Positions 12,545-58,104 of a DNA stretch of 64,000 bases are shown piece after piece. The stretch's first letter is position 1. Each line of letters starts with the position of its first letter. The DNA lies in contig NC_085843.1 in the NCBI RefSeq assembly GCF_035594765.1, positions 217,473,971-217,537,970 of the forward strand, written 5' to 3'. The position numbers and the translations under genes are program-made. Under the pieces are notes generated by a model. It worked only from the letters and a program-made list of their open reading frames with translations, did no database searches and had not been told where the DNA came from. Origin of the DNA: Anolis carolinensis (lineage: Eukaryota).

Positions 12545-14894
12545 GGCGATCCCTCATCGTTCGAGGATGATAGTCTTCCAACCTTGGTATCTTGGGTGTG
12601 TGTTCTTACGTGGCTGAAGAGACCGATTCTTGACCCGCATATTCTCCCACAGTGAGGACATCGGTTTCCAGGTGGAAGGTGGTCCCGGTCGGGGTTAGCT
12701 TGACGCTCCTTCCTCTTGGCACGTTTCTCCCTTAAGCCCTCCGTTCGTGCCTCTTCAAACTCCGCAGCACTGCTGGTTACAGCTGACCTCCAGTTAGAGC
12801 GCTCAAGGGCCAGGGCTTCCCAGTTCTCAGTGTCTATGACACAGTTTTTAAGGTTGGCTTTGAGCCCATCTTTAAATCTCTTTTCCTGCCCACCAACATT
12901 CCGTTTCCCATTCTTGAGTTCGGAGTAGAGGAGCTGCTTTGGGAGACGGTGATCGGGCATTCGGACAACGTGGCCAGTCCAGCGGAGTTGATGGCGTAGG
13001 AGCATCGCTTCAATGCTGGTGGTCTTTGCTTCCTCAAGCACGCTGACATTTGTCCGCCTGTCTTCCCAAGAGATTTGCAGGATTTTCCTGAGGCAACGCT
13101 GATGGAAACGCTCCAGGAGTTTGGTGTGACGTCTGTAGACAGTCCAGGTTTCGCAGGCGTAGAGCAGGGTTGGGAGGACAATGGCTTTATAAACAAGCAC
13201 CTTGGTATCTCTACGGATGTCCCGGTCATCAAACACTCTCTGCTTCATACGGAAAAATGCTGCACTCGCAGAGCTCAGGCGGTGTTGTATTTCAGTGTTG
13301 ATGTTGACTTTTGTGGAGAGGTGGCTGCCAAGGTAGCGGAAATGGTCAACATTTTCTAATATTACACCGTTAAGCTGTATTCCTGGCTTTGCAGAGGGAT
13401 TAGCTGGTGTCTGTTGGAAGAGCACTTTGGTATTCTCGATGTTCAGTGAGAGGCCGAGCTTCTCGTATGCTTCTGCGAAGGTGTTTAGAGTGGCTTGTAG
13501 GTCTTCTTCTGAATGCACACAGACTACATTGTCATCAGCATATTGGAGTTCTATAACAGATGTTGTGGTGACCTTGGTTTTGGCTCTCAGTCTGCTGAGG
13601 TTAAATAGCTTGCAATCTGTCCGCTAGATGATTTCCACTCCGGTGGGAAGCTTCCCATCAACAAGGTGAAGTATCATAGCGATCAAGATGGAAAATAAGG
13701 TGGGGGCAATAACACATCCCTGCTTGACACCTGATTCCACCTTAAATGGGTCACTTTGGAAGCCGTTGCTGTCCAAGACTGTTGCCATCATGTCATCATG
13801 GAGGAGCCGCAGGATGTTCACAAATTTGTCAGGGCACCCGATTTTTTGGAGGATGGTCCAGAGGGCGCTGCGATTCACTGTGTCGAATGCCTTTGCAAGG
13901 TCAATGAATGCCATGTACAGAGGTTGGTTTTGTTCCCTGCATTTTTCTTGGAGCTGTCGAGCAGTGAAGATCATGTCCACTGTTCCTCTGGAGGGGCGGA
14001 AGCCATTCTGGGATTCTGGGAGGGTGTCTTCTGAGACAGGGAGAAGGCGGTTTGCAAGGATTCTTGCAAGGATTTTCCCGGCGGAGGTTAGAAGGGAGAT
14101 ACCACAATAGTTCCCGCAGTCTGTTCTGTCCCCTTTCTTAAAAAGGGTGATGATGGTGGCATCCTTGAAGTCTGCTGGGATTTTCTCGGTCATCCACACC
14201 TTTTCAATGAGCTGGTGGAGTTGTTGTATCAGCTCAGGTCCACCCTCTTTGAAGATTTCAGCAGGAATCCCATCAGGTCTGCTGGCTTTGTTGTTTTTTT
14301 GTTGGCTGATGGCATTGCTGACTTCTTCCAAACTAGGCAGTGCTGCAAGCTCATCCCTGGTTTGTTGTTGCGGGATTTGTGAGAGGGTCTCTTCGGCCAC
14401 ATTGGAGCTGCGATTCCAACATAGTGCAATTGATGTTTTGTCCTTCAGAATTTTGGTTCCATCTGATGAGCGTAGGGGCTGTATGCCATGGTTTCTTGGT
14501 CCATAAATGATCTTTGTGGCTTTGAAAAATCCCTAAGCGTCATGGGTATCTGCAAGGTGTTGGATTTCTTCAGCCTTCTTTGTCCACCAGATGTTCTTGA
14601 GTTCTCTGGTCCTTCTTTGGACCTCAGCTTTTGCACTGGCATAGATCTTTTTCTTGGTAGCACAGTTGGTGTCTCTCTGCCATGTTTGGAAGGCTTTCCT
14701 TTTGTTATCAATCAGCTGTTGGATCTCTTTGTCGTTATCATCAAACCAGTCTTGATGTTTCTTAGTTAGGTATCCAATGCTTTCTTCGCAGGCTGTGATG
14801 ATGGAGGTCTTCAGTTTGTTCCAATGTTCCTCAACATTTTCGGGGTGTTCTGTGGGTAGATGATCTTTGAGTGTTGTTTGGAGAAGGGCTCGTT
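12505..14894 (-). mobile_element. RTE-1 LINE, 5'-truncated, disrupted ORF
   Basis: RT motifs (AFIDLAKAFDTVNR, SGVKQGCVIAPTLF, YADD), C-terminal CPHC...H...H finger, (TAAG)n tail. In-frame stop at 13624. TSD TG(A/G)AAAATTGTA at 12493 and 14895. Inserted into a MIR-like SINE. Confidence 0.95.
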
Positions 14895-15419
14895 TGGAAA
14901 ATTGTAACTTGCCCAAGATCACCCAATGGGTAGTCATGGCTGAATGGAGAGTCAGAGATGATCTTATAGTCCTCTGCTCAAACGACTACATCACACTGTA
15001 TCTTAAAATCAGGATAGAAAGTTATTTATCAGTTCATGCCTATGAATGCTTTTCTTTTAAAAAGATGTTTTGAAAGACATTATTTTTGTAAGACAGAGTA
15101 ATGGATCTTATGAACTGTATTTTCAAATATTATTCATGTGGCCCAGGGCCAGCTCTGTCATTTAGTGGAGCAAGTCAGTCACCTTGGATGTCAAATTTCA
15201 GAAGTCATGAAATGGCAGAGGTTTTTTGCAGAATTTCTTGTTTTAAATGTCAAAAATCAAACAGACAAATACCAAAAACAGCCTACCATGTTGATTGGGG
15301 GGTTCTGGGACTTGTAGTACAAAAATAACTTTGCAAAGTTTTTGCTAATCCACCCATGGTTTGGACCTATTCCAACACAGCAAAGGACACTCAACACTTT
15401 GGGATGGGTGCATATACAC

Positions 15420-33862: not shown

Positions 33863-34187
33863 ATATAATCCAATTCAAAACAGATAATCTGGATTTATAT
33901 GGCAGTGTAGAAGGGCCCCCAGTGAAACCTCATGCATTGAATATTGAATGTGGCACTGAATACTGCCAATGTGGAAGCCACTCTGAGTCCACTTAGAGGT
34001 TGAGATAGGTACAAGTCAGGTCTAGTCGTGTCTGACTCTTGGGGTTGGTGCTCATCTCCATTTCTAAGCCAAAGAGCCGGCGTTGTCCGCAGATGCCTCC
34101 AAGGTCATGTGGCTGCCATGACTGCATGGAGCGCTGTTACCTTCCTGCCGAAGCGGCACCTATTGTTGATCTACTCATATTTTGCAT

Positions 34188-34395
34188 GGTGTTGTTGTAT
34201 GTTTTCCGGACTGTATGGCCATGTTCCAAAAGTATTCTCTCCTGACTTTTCGCCCACATACCTCATAACCTCTGAGGATGCCTGCCATAGATGTGGGCGA
34301 AACGTCAGGAGAGAATACTTCTGGAACATTGCCATACAGCCTGGAAAACATACAACAACCCTGTGATCTTGGCTATGAAAGCTTTCGACAACACA
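34188..34395 (+). mobile_element. Fold-back mini-Penelope insertion inside a Sauria SINE
   Basis: 34191-34258 is the reverse complement of about 34291-34358. 3' tail ...GAAAGCTTTCGACAACAC. Host sequence ATTTTGCATG is duplicated on both sides. Confidence 0.8.
34269..34309 (+). ncRNA. Minimal hammerhead ribozyme motif in Penelope terminal repeat
   Basis: CCU-CUGAGGA-U-GCCUGC(CAUAGAU)GUGGGC-GAAA-CG-UC-AGG. All conserved core nucleotides present, with stem II, stem I (CCU/AGG) and palindromic ACGU in place of stem III. Predicted cleavage after C34306. Confidence 0.75.
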
Positions 34396-34597
34396 CATTT
34401 TGCATGTTTTCGAACTGCTAGGTTGGCGGAAACTGGAGCTAACAGCAGGAGCTCACCCTGCTCTCCAGATTCGGACCGCCAATCTTTCGGTCAGCAAGTT
34501 CCGCAGTTCAGCGGTTTAACCCCCTGCGCCACAGAGGGTTTTAGCGGGGATAAGATAGAGCGGGGTAAATGCAATCCAAGAAAGAAAGAAAAAACAG

Positions 34598-34705
34598 AGT
34601 TGTTGTATGTCTTTCGGGCTGTGTGGCCATGTTCCAGAAGTATTCTCTCCTGACGTTTTGCCCACATCTATGGCAGGCATCCTCAGAGGTTGTGAGGTAT
34701 GGAAA
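34598..34705 (-). mobile_element. Penelope terminal-repeat fragment (hammerhead GAAA mutated to AAAA)
   Basis: Reverse complement of the 34259-34360 unit. Confidence 0.8.
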
Positions 34706-34799
34706 AAACAATCCAAGCACTCCTAGCAGAGGCACATCTAGCCTCTGCTTCGAAACTCCACCAAAGCAACCCCTCTCCCCAGGTTTTGGAATAAACAGC

Positions 34800-35500
34800 C
34801 CCGCGCTTTTGCAGAGGCAAGGACCTTTGCAAGCAACAGAACCCGGGAAGGCTCGCGCTGCCTTCCGCGCGCGCCCCATCCTTCTGATAAGAGACGAAAC
34901 CACCGAAGTTCTTTGGGGTTGTGGTCCTTAGAAGTGGGCGGGGCTTGGCCGAAGGGGGCTGACCAATGGCGTACTGAGGAGCGCTGGAAGCGCCACGTGC
35001 AATGGAAAGTCTCCCCCCTCTCTCTCGTTCACTCCCGAGGGAGGGAGGGAGGGGAGAGGGGCAGCTCACTCTGGCAGCCCCCCTCCCTCTCCTTCGCTGG
35101 CCCGCCCGGCTGTCACTCAAGCTGGGGACCTCCCCTCCGTCGCCTCCCCTCAGCTGGCACCAAGCTCCGCGTTTCATTTGCCCATTCGCTTTGCATGGAG
35201 GAGGAGGAGGGGACGCGTCCCGGGCGGCGGCGGAGGCTGAGGGGCCAGCTGGGGACCCGGCTCTCCTGCCGCTGACAGGACGAAGGAAGGGAAGCAAGAA
35301 AGCGCCCCTCGCTTGCCAAATGGATTACCCGCCCCTCTATGTGATGCTCTCCTGCTTGGTCCCTCTCCACTGGTGGCTGGCCCAAGGCAGAGGAGCCCGA
35401 GCCCAAGGTAGGCAGAAGGCGCGCGCTGAAAGAGTGGCTGGACTTTCCTGAGGAGAGGGAATGCGACGCAGGGCTGTCCGAAAGGCCGGGGAGAAGAAGC
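34800..35500 (+). promoter_or_regulatory. CpG-island-type ADAMTS14 promoter/5'UTR
   Basis: The main GC/CpG-rich unique stretch of the window. GC box GGGCGGGG at 34936, CCAAT at 34963, E-box CACGTG at 34994. No TATA box evident. Surrounds exon 1. Confidence 0.75.
35320..35407 (+). CDS. ADAMTS14: ADAMTS14 coding exon 1 (signal peptide MDYPPLYVMLSCLVPLHWWLAQGRGARAQ)
   Basis: ATG at 35320 in a CpG-rich region. Hydrophobic leader resembles human ADAMTS14 'LLSYLLPLH'. Donor G|GTAGGC at 35408 (phase 1) joins exon 2 in frame (G+AG=Glu). Confidence 0.88.
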
Positions 35501-49592: not shown

Positions 49593-51229
49593 CTGATGGC
49601 TGTCTGTACAAAGGCTTGGACCGAAACCAATTGTCCAGAGGGCTGCTGAGCCCCAGGATACTCTGGAGTTTCCAGAAAATCCTGACTTTGCTTAAAGTGG
49701 GGTTGACAGTGTAGATTAGACTGGTGTAGACAAGCCCTGGTATTGGCCACAGGGAACATAAAACTCCCTTGCAGCAGCTGGTCTCCTGGATTCCAGCCTG
49801 CTTCCAGGCACAATGCAAAGTACTGGTTGGACTATAAAGCCATATGGTGTTCAGGTCCAGGCAGTTTGAAGGCATTTATCTTCCTATATGAGCTCTGCTA
49901 TCATGGCTCTTCTTTTGGTTCTACTCCCAGGCAAGTTGGTAAGAAGAAGGAAGGAGGCCTTTTTGGTGGCTACTCTCAGACTTTAGAACTCTCTTCCAGC
50001 AAAGGCAAGGATGACTTCCTCCTTGATCCCTTTCTTCCAGCAAGTGAAAACTTCCCTTTTCCACAAGGCTTTTAGGAACTGACTGTGATGGGCTTTTAAC
50101 AATGTGGTGTTTTGTTGATTTTTGAAATATTGTGTCAAGAGTTTAAAATGGTTTTAACTCTAGAGGTTGTTTATTTGTTAAGATTATATATATTTGCGTG
50201 ATATGCATATTTGTGCGTATTTACTGATGTTTTTGTATGTTTTTAATTTGTATTGCTTTTCATGATTTGTAAAATGCCTTTGGTTCCACTGTTGAGAAAA
50301 ATGGGACAAAATGCATCTTAAAATTATGAAAAGGTATAAAGTATTACAACAATAGTAACTTCTCTCTTCCTCTTCCTCTGTGGTTTCTTTTTGAAGACAG
50401 ACTATCAGGTAAAACCACACATAATTGTAGGATGTTTAGGAAGAAATACCTCCAGACCCCCTTTCTCATGCAGACACTAACGTTTTTCTCAACTGCTTCT
50501 CAACCATGTAATTATGCATATGGGATCAAATCCTTCAAAGTGGTTTAGGAAATTAGATGTTCTAATTCTCATGTAACTGGAGGCCAAACCATGTTATTAA
50601 TTTGAAAAACAGCACCACAGCCATAGCTGTGCCAGCTGTTGCTTATTGTCTGAACAAGTTGGTTAGCAGGTTCGGAAATGGCCAGGAGTCTTTGTTTTGC
50701 TATAATCTTAACTTGAATTGAAGTGTTAGCTAACATTCTTGTTATATTTTTAGACTTGCAGCCACATTTCAAAAGGTAAAATGTATCCATCTGTCTTATA
50801 CCCAGTAGGCCACTGGCTGATTTGAACTGGACTTTTCTGCAGCAGTTAATCTGTGTTTCAGATTGGAATATTTCCCAGACATCCCTGGAGATGACAAAGA
50901 TTGGCCTTGGGATTTTTTGTATGGAAATTGTGTGCCGTCTTGTAGAACTGCAGCCCTTTCTGTTCTAAGCTGCTGCTAGTTTGTAGACATCACAGAAATG
51001 CTGCCTCATCTTGGCACGTTTTCCTAGTGTTGGCTGTTTTCCTGCTAAGAACAGGCCAGTAACCATAACACTAAAGTGTCTGCCAAACCAGATGGATGTC
51101 ATGGCCAGAACTGTTACAGGAATTAGATCAGAAGGCATTGTTAAAGGTCAGGATTTGAAAGTGGGTTGGGAAAAGTTTTCAGGAAAAAATCTTGCACTGT
51201 CCCTTCCAGCTTTAAATAAATAAAAAAAT

Positions 51230-51450
51230 GGGCTGGTGTGAGTTTTCCAGGCTGTATGACCATGTTTCAGTAGCATTCTCTCCTGATTTGCCTGCATCTG
51301 TGACCGGCATCTTCAGAGATTTGTTCTGAAGATGCCTGCCACAGATGCAGGTGAAATGAAAGGAGATAATAGTATTGAAACATGGCCATACAGACTGAAA
51401 ACTCACAGCAACCCGATGATTGTGGACATGAAGGCCTTCAGCAACACATT
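51230..51450 (+). mobile_element. Fold-back mini-Penelope (older copy)
   Basis: Inverted arms 51230-51317 and 51325-51414, each with a decayed hammerhead, plus tail ...CATGAAGGCCTTCAGCAACACATT. A-rich flanks resemble a TSD. Confidence 0.75.
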
Positions 51451-51649
51451 AAACAAAAAATAATTCAAATTCTCCCACCTGCCTTCCATTAGTGTAAAGA
51501 GGAAAATACATGAAGGATTGAGCCATATGCCATCTTAAATGTATAGCACAACTAATTGTTAATTTCATTTTATTCTGAAGAGCTAAATCTAATTTCTAGT
51601 CCTAGCTCAGGTAGATCAGTTGCATACATTTCTGAATAGCAAGTCTATA

Positions 51650-55229: not shown

Positions 55230-55267
55230 TATAAACCTTCCTTGCTGAGTTCCTCCATACCTCACAA

Positions 55268-55308
55268 CCTCTGAGGATGCCTGCCATAGATGTGGGTGAA
55301 ACGTCAGG
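55268..55308 (+). ncRNA. Minimal hammerhead ribozyme motif (Penelope), intron 2 sense strand
   Basis: CCT CTGAGGA T GCCTGC CATAGAT GTGGGT GAAA CGTC AGG. Core intact; closing pair of stem II is G-U. Confidence 0.65.
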
Positions 55309-55365
55309 AGAGACTACTTCTAGAACATGGCCATACAGCCCAGAAATCATACAACAACCCTGTGA

Positions 55366-55471
55366 TTTATATTGTATTGTTTTGGGCATGGCCCCATGTA
55401 AGCCGCCCCGAGTCCCCGTTGGGGAGATGGTGGCGGGGTATAAATAAAGTTTTATTATTATTATTATTATT
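55366..55471 (+). mobile_element. Very short L2 3' insertion inside the Penelope tail
   Basis: Nearly identical to the reverse complement of 25940-26040; TGAT duplicated at both ends. Confidence 0.85.
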
Positions 55472-58104
55472 ATGATCCCGGCCATGAAAGTCTTCGACAA
55501 CACATTGATACTCTCACTGTAAATGAAAAGCATACACCAATAATGATTCTATTTGCAGTGAAATGGGAAAGTACTCTGATTAGAGAGAGGAGGTTGCAGT
55601 TGATTTTCCTGTGGCCTTTACAAACAAACTGCTTAATGCACATTATGACCTCATCAGTCTGCAAACTGCTTAATGCACATTATGTCCTCATCATACGGGG
55701 CTAAATTCAGCAGCAAATGCTGATCTAGCCTCGGTCCCCCACGGAGCCAGATGGCTCCCATCAAACGATATCGTGCCGGCTCCGTGGGTGCAGAGGGGTG
55801 GAACCGGCATGCCACTGCCTCCCTGGCAACATAGGAGGCTTCCCGTGTTGCCCAATCTATGGGGGGAAGCTGCACACACCACATGTGCTCCATGTTTCTC
55901 CCCCCCCCCCATGTGATTGCCCTACTGGCAAGATGGGTAATGCGAGGCGTAGGGCCCCAGGTTCCCCACGCCTTGCAACATAGCGGACTGCTGCCTCCTT
56001 CTGCTGCTAGTTGTCTGATTAGGTGGTTAAGCAGCTCCCAGTATGTGTTGCATGATTTTTCTATGCCAAATCCTATGTCTTCTAGTATTGGGTTGAAATA
56101 GGATTTTGATTTTCACTTACACTTTGAGGCAAAAGACATTATTCTATTGAAACATTGTGAGTGTGCATCTATGTTGAACTTGTGTAATTTTAAATGGATG
56201 TTTTTATAATGGATGTTTTAATTATCTGTTTTAACTGTGATTGTTTTATAGCTTTTGTATTTTTGGCATGTAATGACTGCCGGTTGTGAGACCGTGCTGA
56301 GCCCCCCTTTGGGGGGTGAGATGGACATGATACAAATGTATGAAATAAATAATAAATAAATATGTTTGAAGGAGGATAGAAATATTTCCATATTTTGTGG
56401 CCATGTCAACGCTTCTTCAGAAGTTGATGAAAATAGTAAAAAAGACTAAATCAGGTAGAGATCAGATATGTGATTTTAAAATCTCATCACATTTGCAGTG
56501 TGACACTTGATTAGTTTATTCTGCCATTCATAGGAAGGAGATAATCCAGTAAAAAGAAATTATAATTTTGCTTCAGTACCAAAGAGATTGCAAATTGAAT
56601 GTAGGTGATGGAGAATGGGGAAAATTTCCATCAAATGGAACAGTTGCTGCAAACTGTTGAAAGACCATTCATTGGACATCCTAGCAATCCCCAAGTTACG
56701 AACAAGTTAGGTTCTGTAGGTTTATTCTTAAGTTGAATTTGTTTGTAAATCAAAACAGGTACATTTCTTAAGTGTAACTCCAGCCAATTTTTAAAGCTTT
56801 GGATAGGGAAGGATTAACACCCATGTAGTGTCCAGAAGATTTCACCTCACTTTCTATCCCTGTGATAATTGAATTTTGAAAAGTGACTTGTTGTGGAAAC
56901 ATAGATTGGTGATAAAGCTTAAGTGGTAACACATTTTCCCCTTGATAACTTTTACAGGAATGAATTTCCTTTCCGAGGGGTAGATTTCACTCACTTCCTG
57001 TTGTCTAACTCACATTCTTAACTAGGAGTCATTTGTAACTGCCTATATTTAGTATGTGCTGGTTCAAGGTTTGCTAGACAGAAAGAACTCAGTTACTTGG
57101 GAAAGTGTAGGAATGAATATGTCTTTGCCTATTAAATGTGTTGTTGGATAATGAAAGAGCCTAATGTAAAAGTGGCCTCTACAATTTGATGGAAAACTAA
57201 CTGTGTACTTCTGTTGGTTACTTCTGCTCCACCCTTCCTCTAGCAGTTACCCATAAAAAAAACTGTTCCAAAGGTCTGGAAAACCCTTTGGAATGGGTTT
57301 TTGGCACCACAAAGAGCTGCTTCTACAGGAAAGGGAGAGGAAGAAAACCCCATTTCTGATGCAATTGGATTATGAATTACACTATTGGATCGGGTCTTGG
57401 CCTTTAAGTTATTCAATATTTTAAAAAATGTGAGCAAGAGAATTTGGCTTTGTTTTTTTCTGGCAATAGTTTGGAAGCAAGCTCTCCCTTTTCGTGTTTG
57501 GCTAGGCTTTCTGTTTATTTATTTGTATTGCTACGTCTGTGTTTGGCCCCATCACAATGTTTTGATGGTACCCTTCTTCCTGATTGATCTTTTCTTATGG
57601 GGAAAAAACCCTGGCTACCTGTCTGAGTGTGTATTCTTATTTAACTGCAAAGGTAAATATATAAAAATACCTCCTACAATTTTTTAATACTGCCATTGAT
57701 AATATTTTTCTCCATTTCCATGAACTTGTGTTGTTGTGGACTAGTTAATATGGAGTTGTGGGGATCAAGATTTTTCCAGACATGGCATGACTTCTATAAA
57801 CCCATAAGGCAGTTTCTGGCAAGTTGCTATCTCTGAACCACAGCCTCGCCATGTACAATATACAATAAAATCCTATGTGCATGCTGTGTCTATGGGAGTG
57901 GGCAAGGTACATGTCTATCTGGTCTGTGGTTGTGTTGGAGATCATGAAAGACTTTATGGTGCTACAAGATCCATTGTAGTCCTAGGACTGCACTATTTCA
58001 GAATACAGATGCTGGTGTCAGTGTTTGTGTGTTTCTCTACATCAAAAATTCCCTGGATTTGGAAAACTATGCTAGAAACTTGATTTGAGATAACTATGCT
58101 AGAG

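Follow-up and report, generated by a model that had tools for sequence, protein, structure and literature searches.

Twin priming by LINE-1, in which both strands of the target site prime cDNA synthesis, leaves a head-to-head inversion within one target site duplication (TSD); the second priming site is internal and variable, and the two arms do not overlap. Inverted arrangements are also encountered among EN+ Penelope-like elements, which carry an inverted, 5'-truncated copy, often with a tail on one end, and the accessible text of PMC8557442 lists the origin of both the inverted repeats and the one-sided tail among the unanswered questions. For example, Pen2a of Adineta vaga has a 9-bp TSD around inverted pLTRs and a 31-bp tail (PMC3846280, accessible part). 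For PAc (Poseidon_Ac) of the anole, the accessible portion of PMC11167929 describes an ORF that begins at stem II of a hammerhead ribozyme, ribozyme cleavage 26 nt past the start codon, initiation of reverse transcription in an AC-rich loop at +111 to +118, and a tail located between two such start sites. Moreover, both target strands are cut and extended by PAc in vitro, a dimer is predicted, and the RNA is required out to +172.

The DNA analysed here, referred to as the window, is a 64,000-nt stretch of the Anolis carolinensis genome (contig NC_085843.1), in which a 208-bp insert occupies positions 34189-34396, flanked by two copies of the 10-bp TSD ATTTTGCATG. Element positions are numbered with the A of the ATG at 34278 as +1. 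The features of the insert, its host site and related copies in the window are as follows:

34020 to 34188, plus strand: host interspersed repeat, 5' part, with five other copies in the window (81-88%)
34179 to 34188, plus strand: left copy of the TSD, 10 bp
34189 to 34259, minus strand: inverted arm, without tail, element +84 to +14
34257 to 34259, plus strand: junction, a 3-nt overlap (CAT) common to both arms
34257 to 34395, plus strand: direct arm, comprising the end of the 3' UTR and the first 39 ORF codons, element -21 to +118
34269 to 34309, plus strand: minimal type I hammerhead motif, found by eye with the descriptor in the accessible text of PMC4209133
34272 to 34278, plus strand: hammerhead core, with stem II at 34280 to 34298 and the predicted cut after 34306 (+29)
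34362 to 34395, plus strand: 34-nt tail, on the direct arm only, element +85 to +118
34397 to 34406, plus strand: right copy of the TSD
34407 to 34531, plus strand: host repeat, 3' part, contiguous with the 5' part across the insert
34594 to 34709, minus strand: separate single-arm stub without tail, element about -23 to +84
51217 to 51227 and 51450 to 51460: TSD of the second fold-back, 11 nt with one mismatch
51230 to 51448, plus strand: second, older fold-back, with its hammerhead triplet lost
51230 to 51321: inverted arm of the second fold-back, +84 to -10
51325 to 51448: direct arm of the second fold-back, -7 to +118

The first-pass annotation had described a hammerhead-bearing fold-back with its own TSD, and the duplication, the 34-nt tail, the minimal hammerhead and the arms (34191-34259 and 34291-34359, 93% complementary across 69 nt) were all confirmed, the TSD scoring 9.7 vs 5.3 for the 99th percentile of shuffled flanks. 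Insertion into a multi-copy repeat, for which 'Sauria SINE' is the name used in that annotation, was borne out by the host repeat, which with the insert removed aligns unbroken over the insertion point in all three copies tried. The description of the insert as ORF-less holds in that a full ORF is absent, but the ATG at 34278 starts the first codons of the element ORF. The minimal hammerhead core, read by eye, is intact at 34272-34306; the ribozyme overlaps the ORF start within the pLTR, as in the descriptions accessible in PMC4209133 and PMC11167929, and the distance from the start codon to the predicted cut, 26 nt, equals that reported for PAc (PMC11167929). An Rfam scan of the whole window at the gathering score returned no match, hammerhead included.

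The frame of the direct arm continues into the N-terminus of an ORF in loci L131 and L229, the latter displaying 816 aa without a stop and a match to RVT_1 (E 1.6e-13), and such arms are preceded upstream by a 3' UTR and a C-terminus resembling an endonuclease. In the C-terminus of the parent ORF a GVY-YIG motif was read by eye, for which Pfam gave no match up to E 5; a genome search with PF01541 yielded 10 loci, in none of which an element arm lies beside the domain, and one unrelated stub in L058. Locus L059 contains a different GIY-YIG-bearing retroelement, with a 748-aa open frame and without a match to the arm of the focal element, which probably represents another Penelope-like clade. 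Positions +111 to +118 read ACAACACA, matching the AC-rich start site of reverse transcription in PAc (PMC11167929, accessible part). The parent thus appears to be a Poseidon-type Penelope element, equated with Repbase Poseidon_Ac by coordinates only and not letter by letter.

Like PAc, the element has its ORF start at stem II, an AC-rich end at +111 to +118, a 34-nt tail and genomic ends on both start sites; neither inverted pairs nor the coupling of one short to one tailed end are described for PAc in the accessible text of PMC11167929. With EN+ elements (accessible parts of PMC8557442, PMC3846280 and PMC2377424) it shares an inverted 5' copy, a 30-40-nt tail on one end, an 8-10-bp TSD and first codons within the pLTR, although the arms here, of about 70 and 140 nt, set it apart from the layout published there. 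The inverted pLTR with a one-sided tail is already published, and the claim of an undescribed system is not upheld: the focal copy is ordinary debris, a stub derived from the 3' part of a Penelope element of Poseidon type, and a known kind of insertion. It also resembles non-LTR retrozymes (PMC7229834 and bioRxiv 10.64898/2026.07.22.740005, accessible parts) in its type I hammerhead, the lack of a full ORF, the long TSD and the link to Penelope pLTRs; unlike these, it has a single, sense hammerhead, without the tandem units that a retrozyme would need and without a lineage of its own.

The second copy in the window, also noted in the first pass, has its own TSD and the outer ends of the focal copy. 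The two fold-backs turn at different junctions, +14/-21 in the focal copy and about -10/-7 in the second. The window also contains five single-arm stubs of the Poseidon-type element, and in the single-arm stub at 55230-55504 another short repeat (100 bp) has inserted into the tail. Just downstream of the focal insert lies an ADAMTS-type gene, presumably ADAMTS14-like: a GC box, a CCAAT box and a signal-peptide-like exon are located at 34937-35410 on the plus strand (about 0.5-1 kb from the insert), and an exon within 39279-39824 on the same strand matches Pfam Pep_M12B_propep (E 1.8e-14); a PDB sequence search with this propeptide exon gave no match below E 0.4. The second fold-back probably lies inside an intron of this gene. 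Long reverse transcriptase frames of a non-LTR retrotransposon, interrupted by stops and presumably RTE-like, occupy 12538-14985 on the minus strand.

An initial genome search returned 5,925 candidates, of which 40 were scored, and to avoid its bias a sample of 160 stretches of 10 kb was taken at set positions on nine contigs (1.58 Mb without N), the later batches of which lean towards chromosome ends. To this fixed-step sample were added 14 further stretches next to dense ones, along with 2 extensions and 19 loci of the endonuclease region. The counts of end types leave out L001-L030, the 30 best BLAST hits, because the query selects for the focal layout. Curation of the 1.58-Mb sample yielded 27 fold-backs between 85 and 1,187 bp long, or about 17 per Mb, including 7 of 190-250 bp; rough extrapolation gives ~30,000 fold-backs per genome, ~8,000 of them in the latter size range. 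Across all loci, sizes form a continuum from 85 to 3,572 bp, and TSDs of 7-18 bp, mostly 10-13, were detected in 29 of the 35 fold-backs tested. The largest fold-back (L229:4292-7863, 3,572 bp) has a 12-bp TSD, and its +84 arm is one whole unit that ends at +89 and would need four more bases to complete the circuit. Several fold-backs lie within or beside older copies of the same element (L120:2133-2353, L246 and L171:9093-9905), in line with the reported nicking of the element's own pLTR.

The outer ends of the fold-backs obey a pairing rule. Most of the 113 arms in the 1.58-Mb sample end at +82 to +86 or at +114 to +119. Short ends are as frequent as tailed ones (95 vs 89). In an automated pass, every head-to-head couple at most 4.2 kb apart was paired and a TSD was then sought, which for the resulting 83 candidates revealed a bounding TSD in 35/56 short/tail couples compared with 1/11 short/short, 0/9 tail/tail and 1/7 odd-ended couples (Fisher p 5e-6). 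The lone short/short case has a 6-nt TSD that was judged spurious, its right arm belonging to another insert, and a couple with a tail at both ends (L239:7100-7905) lacks a TSD. Hence, 35 of the 37 TSD-bounded head-to-head pairs consist of a +84 end joined to a +118 end, and the one-sided tail is not optional, unlike in the EN+ layout as far as its published description is accessible. A search of the open literature (subscription papers not covered) found neither a count of this kind nor a twin-priming model for Penelope, and the pairing rule is what the sample adds to the already published layout.

Both arms of a fold-back stem from the same subfamily or source. Arms of one copy agree at 358/381 non-CpG diagnostic sites in a set of 56 copies, which includes the 30 query-selected loci and from which 7 of 63 copies with fewer than 35 shared sites were dropped, while 5,000 shuffles gave a mean agreement of 0.63 and a maximum of 0.735. 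Among 31 pairs, the +84 arm reaches further in 17 and the tail arm in 9, the remaining 5 being equal, in a count that includes L125 and L155 with swapped arm labels, which cancel each other. The two arms lack any overlap in L067 and L240, and 6 of the 31 tail arms stop at or past +66, which hints at collision on one RNA.

The inner ends behave differently. The first-pass annotation had suggested a stereotyped product of Penelope reverse transcription with a template switch near the ribozyme, of which the stereotyped product is supported; the fixed points are the outer ends at +84 and +118, not the inner junction. Inner junctions are spread between +96 and positions further up than -600, but accumulate in a pile-up at -25 to -16, where 22 of the 122 arms reaching the ATG region end and the stop rate amounts to 0.022 per base vs 0.008-0.011 adjacent and 0.001-0.005 further up. 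Clean junctions (22) comprise 7 with an overlap, 2 that are blunt and 13 with a few filler bases, 9 of the 31 junctions being too complex for this count; 5/31 are symmetric, and a 12-nt overlap occurs in one. The mode of the inner ends, at -20, is located ~30 nt below a TATA-like motif at -54 to -50 (in 4/7 reference copies), and the chances are about even that the pile-up represents the 5' terminus of a transcript initiated within the pLTR. TATA and Inr motifs are described for rotifer pLTRs (PMC3846280, accessible part), but the D. virilis pLTR promoter is TATA-less (PMC2377424, accessible part), which weakens the analogy. A spliced-intron boundary at -18 was considered and rejected, the AG occurring in the older subfamily only and no common upstream exon being seen. 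Arm stops at the ribozyme cut (+29/+30) were likewise rejected as a sign of cleavage in vivo, as 6 of 110 arms begin at +27 to +33, which is too few.

The focal insert is a mirror-image stub, quite probably generated in one landing from two cDNAs of one RNA that were primed from the two nicked strands, started at +118 and +84 and were joined by their 3' ends. In contrast to LINE-1 twin priming, the second site of Poseidon lies at a constant distance of 34 nt from the first, and the two arms mostly cover the same sequence. In such an event, the protein would nick both strands about 10-14 bp apart, as suggested by the TSDs observed and by the two-strand cleavage in vitro (PMC11167929, accessible part), and each nick would prime one cDNA, one per tail boundary, presumably coupled on one RNA by one dimer. 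The cDNAs would stop independently, many at -25 to -16, the long arm of the focal copy being a run-off copy of the RNA 5' end, after which their 3' ends would be joined via a few shared or filler bases (CAT in the focal copy) and filled in. The product would probably be a dead end, without the region +119 to +172 needed by PAc in vitro and with its ribozyme buried in a hairpin; this requirement is perhaps not absolute, since some fold-backs spread, as illustrated by three of the 30 best hits, which lie inside a DNA transposon, and by a spacer-bearing fold-back junction at no fewer than 42 places on contig C17. Part of the evidence runs counter to paired priming: the two start sites of PAc display no strand difference in vitro, and paired products are not reported in the accessible text of PMC11167929; microhomology is not the rule (7/22 clean junctions overlap); 5/31 turns are symmetric, as expected from self-priming; and the L239 couple is tailed at both ends.

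A one-short/one-tail rule would likewise result if both cDNAs began at +118 and the endonuclease trimmed the tail of one arm while resolving the intermediate. Such trimming is the origin suggested for the one-sided tail in PMC8557442 (accessible part) and fits the need of the D. virilis Penelope endonuclease for the tail in recognition (as cited in the accessible text of PMC11167929), but it is considered unlikely, as two reverse transcription start sites bounding the tail have been mapped in vitro (PMC11167929), and the tail-arm stops at +85/+96 beside a long +84 arm (L240, L067), as well as the stop of the whole-unit arm of L229 at +89, suggest that +84 was occupied on the template. Slightly less probable again is self-priming, proposed from palindromic junctions in the accessible part of PMC3846280, in which one strand, either the first cDNA or antisense RNA, would fold onto itself and serve as its own template: the subfamily agreement of the arms, the symmetric junctions and the 12-nt overlap agree with it, but snap-back of a +118 cDNA requires a longer tail arm, whereas the +84 arm is the longer one in 17/31 pairs, and simple snap-back is excluded for the two pairs (L067 and L240) whose arms share no sequence. 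Self-priming of antisense RNA may account for the symmetric cases.

As its alternative, the first-pass annotation had proposed a non-autonomous family of 210-bp fold-backs that amplifies independently, possibly with a ribozyme that is switched on and off. The proportion of fold-backs measuring 190-250 bp (7/27) would fit such a family, and so would the recurrence of the focal junction, of which an 18-base word has 8 exact matches genome-wide (3 inside one 156-bp array), corresponding to 5 dispersed loci and one array; moreover, a related spacer-bearing lineage did amplify. In this array (L187:813-2042), a fold-back with the focal junction has expanded into 156-bp tandem units (7.9 copies, 89% matches). 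Nevertheless, the outcome that the annotation had named as contrary to its proposal was observed: junctions scatter, and the six copies that share the focal junction fall into three subfamilies by their signatures and have different TSDs, the 70-nt arms being compared by diagnostic sites and not by tree. L181 has the focal junction with the tail on the opposite arm, and most of the arm differences that recur are CpG changes, which run both ways. Two arm differences, one of them outside CpG, are common to L003 and L181, but with their tails on opposite sides neither can simply have been copied from the other. Three of the 30 best hits (L014, L017 and L020) have common flanks and represent a single fold-back that travels within a TA-bounded repeat, presumably a DNA transposon in view of this end, which also contains captured GC-rich sequence. 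Contigs assembled from four guessed-RNA runs contained nothing specific to the focal locus.

With respect to the proposed switch, the inverted arm indeed base-pairs with the half of the ribozyme that contains the cleavage site, as had been suggested, and is transcribed first. In folding calculations, however, the hammerhead fold is disfavoured by 34.5 kcal/mol when imposed on the whole insert, compared with 10.9 on the direct arm alone, and this cost, together with the prior synthesis of the inverted arm, argues for a lock instead of a switch; as modelled, the ribozyme in the focal insert is locked off and a by-product. The triplet lost from the second window copy also argues against such a family. 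Furthermore, minimal hammerheads require a partner or a protein (PMC4209133, accessible part), and the PAc ribozyme is protein-dependent and dispensable for insertion in vitro (PMC11167929, accessible part). An amplifying family with such a switch is therefore regarded as very improbable.

A retrozyme-like derivative, another suggestion of the first pass, does not apply to the focal element but does hold for tandem arrays elsewhere in the genome. A joint in the assembled contigs led to 80-nt head-to-tail units (element -21 to +59), each with a full minimal hammerhead. The unit junction has 1,087 exact matches genome-wide, the first 100 listed lying near ends of contigs C1, C3 and C4, and the nine array loci read (L246-L254), on C4 (0.9-3.2 Mb), C17, C1, C3 and C54, contain from 2 to at least 55 units. 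The core is intact in 6/6 units of L246, and intact cleavage motifs number 14 in L247 and 49 in L249. Both ends were scored at six array loci, of which three are fold-backs that terminate like Poseidon (at about +84 and +116 to +118) and have 12-15-bp TSDs and unrelated outer flanks; among the other three, two are without a TSD and one has a weak TSD.

A 112-bp spacer combined with an antisense element piece and tandem hammerhead units recurs at no fewer than 42 places, each of them on C17 (with 40 scored among 88 candidates), and a 16-base spacer word has 47 of its 48 exact matches on this contig, the remaining one being a chance match. These places are distributed over C17:4.58-12.3 Mb of the 14-Mb contig in both orientations. 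Three spacer loci were read (L248, L250 and L252), and the others may reflect local DNA duplication. The arrays contain two or more consecutive, complete hammerheads, which is the tandem-unit criterion in the accessible text of bioRxiv 10.64898/2026.07.22.740005, a study whose species table may include this genome. Compared with canonical retrozymes (PMC7229834, accessible part), their ribozyme is minimal instead of canonical and their units are shorter than the 150-450 nt described. Judged by sequence, the 80-nt arrays would constitute a retrozyme-like lineage.

As a tentative overall picture, held with somewhat less than even confidence, Penelope would insert by asymmetric twin priming, with one dimer acting on one RNA at fixed sites 34 nt apart, one for each DNA strand, and with stubs that are mostly run-offs at the mRNA 5' end, and the same machinery would spread an 80-nt retrozyme in the making that arose from this 5' end and of which one branch is confined to a single small chromosome. 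The pairing rule is a sharp and testable constraint on the insertion mechanism, and the genomic pattern (+84 with +118, one source, either arm longer) constitutes a prediction for the assay with purified, active PAc (PMC11167929, accessible part). Finally, 80-nt arrays with Poseidon ends and TSDs would directly support the movement of non-LTR retrozymes by Penelope proteins.
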